UHGV virus genome: UHGV-0166775
Direction: 5' to 3' (one strand)
From: a virus
Length of the DNA: 10,793 nucleotides
The translations under genes were made by a program, and so were the position numbers. Under the pieces are notes generated by a model that was given only the letters and a program-made list of their open reading frames with translations, did not search any database and was not told the origin of the DNA. Shown here piece by piece: positions 1,305 through 3,010 of this stretch (within the stretch, counting starts at the first letter, position 1; each line of letters opens with the position of its first letter).

Positions 1305-1598
1305 TTATTGTGAGCAATAGACCCGAGCTTCAAGCGGAGTATAAATGCCTAAAGTAATAAAACCGAGCAATCCATTTACGAATGTTTGCTGGGTTTCAGT
1401 TTTAACAACTTTATCTGCGCCACCACAAATTTTGGCTGCATCGACAGTTTTCTTCTGACCAATTCCTGAAACGAAGAAATGATGAGTGATGGTTTCCTTC
1501 GGTGTTACTGTTGTAGGTTTGTTTTCAACTGTAAACGTCTGTTGAGCACATCCAGAGATAAGCAGCGCCAGTGTGAAAGTGAGTAGCGTTTTTTTCAT
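1305..1598 (-). CDS. bor: Bor outer-membrane lipoprotein (serum-resistance protein, Iss family)
   Basis: 97 aa. MKKTLLTFTLALLISGCAQQTFTV... matches lambda Bor almost residue for residue from memory, including lipobox LISGC and C-terminus ARVYCSQ. Minus strand, opposite to the late operon, as in lambda. Confidence 0.93.
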   Translation of the reverse strand: MKKTLLTFTLALLISGCAQQTFTVENKPTTVTPKETITHHFFVSGIGQKKTVDAAKICGGADKVVKTETQQTFVNGLLGFITLGIYTPLEARVYCSQ

Positions 1599-1822: not shown

Positions 1823-2233
1823 TTAGCGTGGAAAAATTTGAGTCGTGTTCTGGATGCTTTCGGTAAACAATAATGAGTTGTCAAAGGTATAGTAATATCT
1901 TTTGTGTTCGTGGATATTTGTAACCCATCGGAAAACTCCAGCTTTAGCCAGATTTACCCTGTATTCATGAAATGTGATTTCTCTTGATTTCAACTTATGA
2001 AGGTAAGTTTCTATAAGTCGCGTGTCTCTGCAAAAGCTAACATGAATAACATCATGGAAACCTTTTATTAACACCGTGTTATCGCTCTCAAATACAATGT
2101 GAATATTACCTGTGGCTAAATAGTAAATGTAATGTGAGACATTGTGGCGTTTTAGTTCAGAGTAAAACCGGTCACAGTTTAAATCTTTCCGCACTTGATC
2201 AAATATTTCTTTAAAAATGGCAACCTGAGCCAT
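1823..2233 (-). CDS. Hypothetical 136-aa protein in AT-rich accessory island; possibly YbcV/YdfO-like (DUF1398) prophage protein
   Basis: ORF on minus strand with ATG at 2231-2233 and an SD-like aagggga upstream (rc of 2239-2245). AT-rich codon usage unlike the neighbouring head genes. Same orientation and position relative to bor as borD-ybcV in the DLP12 prophage. Family assignment is from memory of gene order and size only, not verified at sequence level. Confidence 0.6.
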
Positions 2234-2407
2234 CAGTATCCCCTTGTATATGATATGAGGGGCGTAGTCTGCATGAGTGCTTTTAATACTGCAATCTGGT
2301 CAGATGTCTTTATCGTATATTGATGATTATTGTCGGATAGTATGAGGTTTTCTCAACGCATGGAAATACCGGAAGGTGCGAAAATTACTAAGTAAGAAGA
2401 GTTACAT

Positions 2408-2432
2408 AAGCCCTTCATACAGTGAAGGGCTT
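2408..2432. repeat. Perfect 10-bp inverted repeat (stem-loop) aagcccttca-tacag-tgaagggctt
   Basis: Arms 2408-2417 and 2423-2432 are exact reverse complements with a 5-nt loop. No adjacent U-tract on either strand. Confidence 0.5.
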
Positions 2433-2508
2433 CTGTAATCTTAGAAATAAAAAACCGGTCATAGGGAGCTACACAGAACCGGTCGGCGAAGACCGCCAAT
2501 ACCACCCA

Positions 2509-2520
2509 TGCATCGATGCA
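2509..2520. repeat. 12-bp perfect palindrome tgcatcgatgca
   Basis: Self-complementary 12-mer. A partial copy atgcatcga recurs at 2564-2572. A second palindrome caatagc-t-gctattg lies at 2533-2547. Confidence 0.4.
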
Positions 2521-2843
2521 ACATACTAATGACAATAGCTGCTATTGATGTAAATGCAATGTTATGCATCGACGAAAATAAAAAACCGGCAGGGGAAATC
2601 CATTGAAGACTTGCCGGTGGCAAAAGTTGCCAATGCTTTTATAACCGTAGTCACAGAGTTACGAAGTGCAACACCGAATGCTGCTGGTATATGGATGAAT
2701 GGCGTTTCAATGATGTGCATCATTCAAATCACAAATAGTATTGATACTTATTCTCGGTTTTGCGGGTCCTTTCCGGTGATCCGGCAGGCTACGGGGCGGC
2801 GACCTCGCGGGTTTTCGCTATTTACGAGTTTTTTTGAGGTGAT

Positions 2844-2852
2844 GGTTGTTGT
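2844..2852 (+). repeat. cosB repeat 1 (GGTTGTTGT), candidate small-terminase binding element
   Basis: 9-bp core ggttgttgt, about 39 bp downstream of the cosN overhang. Confidence 0.4.
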
Positions 2853-2902
2853 TTTATCGTTTGATATATCTACTTGATAAGTAATAAGAAAGAAAAATAA
2901 AC

Positions 2903-2911
2903 ACAACAACC
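2903..2911 (-). repeat. cosB repeat 2 (GGTTGTTGT on minus strand; inverted)
   Basis: Plus-strand acaacaacc is the reverse complement of the core. Flanks resemble the other copies (ggttgttgtgtt on minus). Confidence 0.4.
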
Positions 2912-2968
2912 TGATGATCTTTCTTATACGAAAAAGCATGTAAAATCAGAGGGTTTTACAAAAAACGT

Positions 2969-2977
2969 GGTTGTTGT
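2969..2977 (+). repeat. cosB repeat 3 (GGTTGTTGT), immediately upstream of Nu1 start
   Basis: Third copy of the same 9-mer in direct orientation. Arrangement direct-inverted-direct between cosN and the Nu1 start is reminiscent of lambda R3/R2/R1. Confidence 0.4.
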
Positions 2978-3010
2978 ATTGCTTTTTTGCCGGTGGTTTA
3001 TGGAGGGGCT

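Follow-up and report, generated by a model that had tools for sequence, protein, structure and literature searches.

A probable pair of minus-strand intrinsic terminators with a boundary stem-loop in a mobile non-coding cassette upstream of cos in an Escherichia coli lambdoid prophage

The stretch of DNA analysed here (UHGV virus genome UHGV-0166775, 10,793 nucleotides; referred to as the window) is an Escherichia coli lambdoid prophage, and its positions 2240-2800 are 99.8% identical to E. coli strain ARS-C301. Its genes are arranged in the order GH108 endolysin, Bor (1305-1598, minus strand) and a DUF1398 protein of 136 amino acids (aa; 1823-2233, minus strand), followed by a gene-free stretch of 750 bp and the genes of the Nu1-family small terminase (terS) and the large terminase. 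A lambda-type cos is located inside the gene-free stretch. The sequence from 2402 to about 2763, between the DUF1398 gene and cos, was found to be a conserved mosaic module with signals on the minus strand that run against the phage late operon. The module comprises a unit A, an optional unit B and a stem-loop at its left boundary, hairpin C. Based on the sequence comparisons described below it is probably a mobile non-coding cassette in which a pair of minus-strand intrinsic terminators (tA and tB) and the boundary stem-loop have been kept by selection.

The original prediction concerned 2400-2600, the 3' two-thirds of the module in the minus-strand sense, and described a long hairpin, perfect palindromes and direct repeats at a density above chance. 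All of these elements are present: a perfect 10-bp stem (2408-2417 / 2423-2432) that extends to 16-nt arms (2402-2417 / 2423-2438) with 94% complementarity, the 12-nt palindrome TGCATCGATGCA (2509-2520) with the partial copy ATGCATCGAC (2564-2573), the palindrome CAATAGC-T-GCTATTG (2533-2547) and the exact 14-nt direct repeat AAATAAAAAACCGG (2445-2458 and 2576-2589). Among 2000 dinucleotide-preserving shuffles of 2400-2600, none contained a direct repeat of at least 14 nt (0/2000) and three a perfect stem of 10 bp or more enclosing a loop of 3-10 nt (3/2000), whereas a perfect palindrome of at least 12 nt occurred in 103. The repeat and the hairpin are thus non-random, while the claim of an excess over chance does not extend to the 12-nt palindrome alone, which is borderline. 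Conservation results in the same ranking. Relatives retain the hairpin as well as both copies of the repeat, but the perfect 12-mer palindrome is lineage-specific, most relatives carrying TGCATTGATGCA or more diverged forms. The palindrome at 2533-2547 is disrupted by uncompensated one-sided changes in three lineages (related loci L115, L019 and L001/L003). Both palindromes (2509-2520 and 2533-2547) are incidental.

The stem-loops noticed beside each repeat copy are explained by the minus strand. On this strand both copies read CCGGUUUUUUAUUU and constitute the 3' stem arm and the U-tract of an intrinsic terminator. Terminator tA (2575-2618, minus strand) consists of a two-part hairpin (2585-2618, ACCGGCAAGUCUUCAAUGGAUUUCCCCUGCCGGU) with a U6AU4 tail (2575-2585) and holds repeat copy 2, and terminator tB (2444-2484, minus strand) consists of a hairpin (2453-2484, GACCGGUUCUGUGUAGCUCCCUAUGACCGGUU) with a U6AU3 tail (2444-2453) and holds repeat copy 1. 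The folding energies are -13.5 kcal/mol for tA and -11.4 kcal/mol for tB, and a U-tract directly 3' of the stems is found on the minus strand only. Both elements therefore show the stable GC-rich stem-loop and the one-strand U-tract by which intrinsic terminators are recognised. The 13-mer CCGGTTTTTTATT is confined to tA and tB within 1.3 Mb of related phage DNA and is therefore not a generic motif. The terminator scan employed restricts the loop to 3-8 nt, a limit exceeded by the hairpins of tA and tB in the window, so that both were missed there.

Conservation was assessed in 46 unique relatives collected by an anchor at 2485-2507, which lies outside most of the elements tested. The T-tracts of tA and tB are invariant in 10 of 10 columns each, corresponding to a mean pairwise identity of 1.000 for both. 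The tA hairpin has a mean pairwise identity of 0.977 with 28 of its 34 columns invariant; its loop bases differ among relatives (CATTGAAG, CATGGAAG, CAGTAAAG, CATTGAG) and both stems are retained. The stem pairs of tB are paired in 98.5% in relatives, and terminator stems overall are kept in 98-100% of the cells. Furthermore, an 8-nt loop deletion of tB in the L002 and L119 lineages leaves the stem intact (-15.7 kcal/mol), and the deletion form of L002 was called terminator-like by the consensus scan.

In both units a small hairpin is located directly 5' of the long-U-tail terminator, an arrangement that is one of the criteria for Hfq-type small RNAs. The small hairpin of unit A (UUGGCAACUUUUGCCA, 2618..2633, minus strand), directly 5' of tA, was seen in the fold. 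It shrinks to UGGC…GCCA in relatives and adjoins a hotspot of 1-3 nt indels, and its plus-strand reading was called weakly terminator-like. In unit B the penultimate small hairpin (GGCGGUCUUCGCC, 2485..2497, minus strand), directly 5' of tB, is part of the RNAalifold consensus and is paired in 100% of the cells, but this site lies inside the anchor pattern by which the sequences were gathered, so that the figure is no independent measure of its conservation.

The left boundary of the module is formed by hairpin C (2402..2438, no strand assigned), a 16-bp stem-loop with one mismatch, a folding energy of -20.9 kcal/mol and a z-score of -5.8. Compensatory double changes were detected at two of its stem pairs (G-C to U-A and C-G to A-U), and 98% of the cells are paired. 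The left flanks that abut it are of at least three unrelated kinds. No U-tract follows the stem on the plus strand, and what follows on the minus strand in this lineage is a U-rich stretch. In the palindrome at 2709-2724, the 5' hairpin of unit A, one double change from T-A to C-G was observed with a C·A intermediate. Homologues were found in E. coli phages only, and the covariation was assessed at that shallow depth.

Unit B (2459..2589, minus strand) is an optional segment of 131 bp, composed of 117 nt and one 14-nt repeat copy, that is bracketed by the direct repeat and contains the lineage-specific palindromes 2509-2520 and 2533-2547. In L006-L009 and L136 it is absent exactly between the repeat copies, and the 131 related loci include 82 with two units and 49 with one; about 40% of the copies lack unit B. 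The unit B body has a mean pairwise identity of 0.925 with 34 of 67 columns invariant. Its origin could be a duplication or an insertion at the terminator tail. Beyond the 14-mer it shows no significant similarity to unit A, the alignment score of 18 without the 14-mer being reached in 129 of 1000 shuffles. A miniature transposable element was considered and rejected, since unit B has one context in every locus inspected (142 BLAST places in 126 genomes). No terminal inverted repeats were seen by eye, and the 14-nt flanking repeat is itself the terminator tail.

The body of unit A (2634..2724, minus strand) comprises block 1 (AUCAUUGAAACGCCAUUCA, 2696-2714), block 2 (2654-2672) and the 5' palindrome (2709-2724). 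Block 1 has a mean pairwise identity of 0.973 (invariant columns 11/19) and block 2 one of 0.926 (5/19), while the rest of unit A reaches about 0.85 with few invariant columns. The variable region upstream of unit A (2725..2763, minus strand), where any unit A promoter would have to be located, is the least conserved part (identity 0.751, invariant columns 5/39). Block 1 is mostly unpaired in the consensus fold of unit A. A long-range pairing between CAUUGAA of block 1 and UUCAAUG of the tA loop was considered and rejected, as the loop variants CATGGAAG, CAGTAAAG and CATTGAG are uncompensated. A search of the window for targets of block 1 and unit A resulted in chance-level 9-11-mers only, including TTGCCGGTGG at 2987. 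This 10-mer constitutes one arm of tA (2609-2618) and occurs again at 2987-2996 just upstream of the terS ribosome-binding site. The recurrence is probably a coincidence, with about three such matches expected by chance for a 155-nt query in the window.

Unit A (2574-2735) was detected in 243 of 5426 complete E. coli genomes (approximately 4.5%) and unit B (2459-2575) in 126 of the same 5426. The carriers of the module include the enterotoxigenic E. coli (ETEC) strain E24377A, the commensal strain SE11, an avian pathogenic E. coli (APEC) isolate as well as bovine and Shiga toxin-producing E. coli (STEC) isolates, and the module is also present in the phages phiSTEC1575-Stx2k, phi458 and cdtI and in more than 130 IMG/VR contigs. 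Outside E. coli phages, the search with a two-anchor pattern in one genome each of 185,579 species revealed 4 chance matches only.

The contexts of the module are mosaic. Its left neighbour is an intact plus-strand gene of 115-130 aa (geneX) in 62 of the 131 related loci, another gene with its own terminator in 23 and neither of these in 46. On the right side, cos and terS (Nu1-type, DUF1441-type and others) each occur in at least three types, and about 40 bp separate the end of the module from cosQ in 127 of the 131 loci. In four IMG/VR loci (L137, L143, L146 and L148) a ParB-like gene adjoins the module there, followed by other genes and, at a distance, a terminase-like open reading frame (ORF), and neither cosQ nor cosN is present. 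In this non-cos lineage the right junction is found some 35-40 bp upstream of the palindrome at the 5' end of unit A. Furthermore, the tA hairpin together with its small hairpin has a diverged counterpart in phage PhiR5_1 (L154, 1500-1560; 81.5% over 54 nt). This counterpart is located directly after the Rz stop codon and is followed by a different pre-cos sequence (1627-1845). Pre-cos sequence of the PhiR5_1 type is far commoner (2106 of 5426 E. coli genomes, including O157:H7).

Taken as a whole, the module with tA, tB and hairpin C may represent the terminators of one or two small leftward non-coding RNAs, a reading to which we assign a probability of roughly one half. It appears somewhat less probable that tA and tB end a dedicated small non-coding RNA, whose promoter and transcript are hypothetical and which is proposed from sequence features. 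RNA polymerase moving leftwards would be stopped at tA, with tB and hairpin C serving as back-ups, and unit A would release an untranslated RNA of about 150 nt. Unit B could provide a second RNA of about 130 nt or, by read-through, one of about 280 nt. Such an RNA would converge with the late transcript that crosses the region and would be fully complementary to it, block 1 would be the candidate pairing region, and the RNA would resemble a small RNA of the prophage "moron" type.

A terminated small RNA product is suggested by the layout of the module, which is that of a small-RNA gene with a conserved 5'-proximal block, a variable middle part, a small hairpin and a long-U-tail terminator. It is further suggested by the moron-type location pointing against the late operon and by the convergent small RNAs with conserved 3' ends that lambdoid prophages are known to carry (PMC4104026). 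The small RNA that the original prediction offered as one option is thus favoured by the evidence, but as a candidate only, on the minus strand and in a larger unit than 2400-2600. A more specific proposal is possible but doubtful: a prophage small RNA of about 150 nt that has so far gone unannotated would be expressed from unit A, and optionally a second one from unit B. It would pair through AUCAUUGAAACGCCAUUCA with mRNAs of the host or the phage or, alternatively, tune late genes as a perfect antisense of the late transcript in the interval from the lysis to the head genes.

Several results weigh against small leftward RNAs. One is the lack of a promoter, since no sigma-70 promoter above random was detected upstream of unit A or B in any of the 56 upstream haplotypes. 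The variant of the window is the weakest of them, with a best sigma-70 matrix score of 2.2 bits compared with a random median of 4.4 and a 90th percentile of 7.8. Consensus scanning likewise detected no promoter at 2725-2763 in the window, L002 and L136. These scans cover sigma-70, and activator-dependent or alternative-sigma promoters fall outside them. Inspection by eye revealed weak -10-like hexamers (TACTAT, TAACAT, TACATT) in three of four upstream haplotypes, where their position is comparable.

The strand assignment is a further point. Folding of 2395-2760, carried out on both strands, beat the shuffles on the minus strand (z = -5.3) as well as on the plus strand (z = -3.6). The consensus folding energies are alike on both strands, with -16.7 (minus) and -18.3 kcal/mol (plus) for unit A and with -35.6 (minus) and -29.2 kcal/mol (plus) for unit B together with hairpin C, and the strand call rests chiefly on the invariant U-tracts. 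One-sided stem changes in unit B and hairpin C result in G·U pairs on the minus strand in 15 cases and pair only on the plus strand in 4, but this hand-tallied count is biased towards the minus strand, on which the structure had been predicted. In addition, the RNAalifold consensus of unit A consists essentially of the terminator, with no covariation and no further conserved structure.

The available records on RNAs are unfavourable as well. In the window and five related loci no Rfam match at E <= 1 was obtained inside the module, including AgvB, AsxR, STnc100, Esr41 and IsrG. A literature search found no expression data for module-carrying strains, and a search for transcriptomes of E24377A returned nothing usable. 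Finally, block 1 encodes IIETPF at the start of ORF A, a minus-strand reading frame discussed below, the first 26 codons of which are open in 30 of 32 haplotypes. The module sequence string had no match in the searchable literature, and among the BLAST matches listed the module seems to be absent from the strains O157:H7 Sakai and E2348/69 that were used for CRAC (cross-linking with cDNA analysis) and for RIL-seq (sequencing of ligated interacting RNAs).

Phage morons flanked by Rho-independent terminators are a concept of Juhala et al. 2000 (cited in PMC4104026). The module resembles moron terminators in its GC-rich stem-loops with a directly following U-tract, in its position at a late-region insertion site of a lambdoid phage and in its nature as a mosaic cassette. 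It also opposes the late operon, as do the neighbouring bor and DUF1398 genes. In contrast to a moron, it holds no protein-coding gene between a promoter and the terminators, and its two tandem terminators have the same 14-nt tail, while their loops are long and in part structured.

Prophage small RNAs that converge with late or moron genes have been described with conserved 3' regions and variable 5' ends (PMC4104026). Among these, AgvB and AsxR (EcOnc01-03; RF02702, RF02703) are anti-sRNAs of E. coli O157:H7 prophages (PMC4104026). They are, like the module, short non-coding units of lambdoid prophages with a conserved 3' terminator region that are convergent or antisense to late or moron transcripts and occur as related, non-identical copies in different prophages. 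However, the module matches them neither in sequence nor by covariance model, and its predicted RNA of about 150 nt compares with 51-60 nt. It is located between the lysis region and cos, whereas AgvB and AsxR lie just downstream of PR', and the 5' block of unit A is conserved, whereas their 5' part is variable. Expression, Hfq binding and the transcription start have been demonstrated for AgvB and AsxR, while the module is known here from its sequence alone. The Pas small RNAs PasA, PasB, PasC and PasD of prophages in enteropathogenic E. coli (EPEC; PMC8550237; bioRxiv 10.64898/2026.05.13.724894) are similar to the module in that they are intergenic, prophage-borne, patchily distributed in Escherichia/Shigella only and variable in copy number and sequence. 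They differ from it in that none of the published Northern probe sequences, compared by eye, resembles the module locus, and the one E2348/69 small-RNA locus compared (EcOnc) adjoins the Q gene and not cos.

Alternatively, the module may be an insulator only. In this case tA, tB and hairpin C would be a triple stop against stray leftward antisense transcription from the side of cos and the head genes, protecting the lysis cassette, geneX or, in the window, the DUF1398-bor genes, and the units would be spacer without a dedicated promoter or product. The conservation pattern agrees with this explanation insofar as conservation peaks in the terminators and T-tracts, whereas the bodies and the upstream region drift, and so does the failure to detect a promoter. 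The diverged tA hairpin after Rz in PhiR5_1 moreover suggests that this hairpin is reused on its own. However, block 1 is as conserved as the terminator (0.973), which a pure spacer leaves unexplained, and the tA loop and bulge would need no conservation, yet 28 of 34 hairpin columns are invariant. Furthermore, it is not apparent where leftward transcription would come from, as neither the head genes nor the cos-terS region has a minus-strand promoter-like site. We regard insulation as the sole function as rather unlikely.

The presence of one or two small protein genes, with the hairpins as their ordinary terminators, appears improbable. The candidates are ORF A of 53 aa (2723..2562, minus strand) and a 36-codon ORF of unit B. 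The Prokaryotic Genome Annotation Pipeline (PGAP) sometimes annotates ORF A as a 52-aa hypothetical protein, and most genomes carry no annotation here. Besides the PGAP call and the largely open first 26 codons with the start M-x-x-I-I-E-T-P-F, a coding function is supported by five synonymous third-position changes in L135 among the differences in the first 14 codons and by a ratio of non-synonymous to synonymous polymorphism (pN/pS) of 0.57 for ORF A. This ratio is, however, matched by the reverse-strand frame (0.55), the other frames ranging from 0.74 to 1.1, and the variable sites are spread evenly over the three codon positions (11/27, 13/26 and 12/26) with no three-base periodicity. Indels of 1-3 nt at about 2625-2645 put the C-terminal half of ORF A in three frames, all of which run past the U-tract before any stop codon, so that a terminated mRNA would lack a stop codon.

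In-frame stops interrupt ORF A in two haplotypes (copies in L128 and L135), and the unit B ORF has lost its start codon, acquired a premature stop or suffered the 8-nt frameshifting deletion in different relatives. No Shine-Dalgarno sequence was seen by eye. Searches against 5.8 and 1.84 billion proteins revealed only 7-8 clusters of E. coli hypothetical proteins, all from the same locus, with no homologues beyond it among the 1.84 billion representative proteins, and Pfam contains no family for four ORFs of the region. The idea that ORF A is a relic of a larger known gene was rejected, since its matches were ORF calls at the same locus only. From these sequence data we conclude that the region is most likely non-coding, with a residual chance of a short peptide; in agreement with the original prediction of no convincing ORF in 2400-2600, that part has no coding signature and its unit B ORF is broken in relatives. 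Hypothetical-protein ORFs are also annotated on the plus strand in some records (window 2554-2877, L135 1622-1858, L001 2635-2838). Those of the window and L135 cross cosN, and that of L001 ends before it. They are probably spurious calls, as they are broken by the same indels as the minus-strand ORF.

Very improbable is a role at the DNA level in packaging, a protein-binding site of this kind having also been suggested. In this case terminase, IHF or another protein would bind to the palindromes and repeats upstream of cosQ, and cos recognition or the end of packaging would be assisted. In phage lambda, cosQ and cosB are accessory sites of cos in packaging. The module lies immediately upstream of cosQ, from which its end is about 40 bp away in most loci; palindromes and A-tracts are present, and the symmetry at 2709-2724 was kept through a double change. 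However, lambda lacks the module, its match and those of its relatives starting only from about 2759, and the module accompanies several cos and terS types or, in the ParB-like lineage, occurs without cosQ. The 12-nt and 15-nt palindromes are unconserved, half of the copies are without unit B, and what stays invariant, a strand-specific T-tract following a hairpin, is a signal of the RNA. The distribution of the module thus contradicts the packaging reading as well as a regulation of the DUF1398 gene.

The latter, in which the module was thought to be the regulatory region of the 136-aa gene, or a leader of the minus-strand DUF1398-bor genes with the terminators as attenuators, is hardly credible: in the window the DUF1398 gene does have the terminators upstream of it on its own strand, and translation-coupled attenuators such as the pyrBI leader come to mind where an ORF continues through a terminator, but with at least three unrelated left neighbours most copies are without DUF1398 and face a convergent plus-strand gene or the terminator of another gene, and 2234-2359, which carries the sole promoter-like site of 2200-3000, is outside the module and not conserved with it.

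The module is a previously unannotated prophage cassette of terminators or of a small RNA, absent from Rfam and from genome annotation. Provided that it makes an RNA, this would be one more regulatory small RNA spread among E. coli strains by lambda-like phages, and a new small RNA family in an interval, from the lysis genes to cos, for which genes of this type are uncatalogued. If it is a terminator stack only, these phages would keep a strong antisense-strand insulation at the junction of the lysis and packaging genes. In either case the hypothetical-protein calls of PGAP and phage annotators (the 52-aa minus-strand ORF and the plus-strand ORFs crossing cos) are probably spurious, and the region lies outside the packaging signal.

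The module is flanked in the window by the remains of a gene on its left side. The last 11 codons and the stop codon of geneX (MEIPEGAKITK, 2360..2395, plus strand) align with the 3' end of the intact gene, which encodes 115-130 aa, ends in GMELPEGAVVTE before its stop codon and was found in L002, L003, L006, L007 and L137. The end of geneX lies upstream of hairpin C in the 62 loci mentioned above, and their homology to the window stops at about 2359. No Pfam match was obtained for geneX, and its relic is not functional in the window. Judging from this alignment, position 2359 or its vicinity is the apparent recombination joint where the DUF1398-bor segment was spliced in. A plausible promoter for the DUF1398-bor pair is provided by the sole sigma-70-like site in 2200-3000 (TTGAGA-16-GACAAT, 2356..2329, minus strand), which is located outside the conserved module, some 95 bp upstream of where the DUF1398 gene starts. 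No tRNA or tmRNA genes were found by ARAGORN.

On the right side the module is flanked by GGGTCCT (2764-2770, plus strand) and by the 12-nt cohesive end GGGCGGCGACCT (2794-2805, plus strand), which we take from the lambda sequence to be cosQ and cosN, respectively, and which both lie outside the module. From about 2759 rightwards the cos of phage lambda matches with 94-96%. Between cosN and the start of the Nu1-type terS, the motif GGTTGTTGT occurs three times (2844-2852, plus strand; 2903-2911, minus strand; 2969-2977, plus strand), a number that was reached in none of 200 shuffles. By analogy to R3, R2 and R1 of lambda, these copies are likely cosB-type binding sites of the small terminase.

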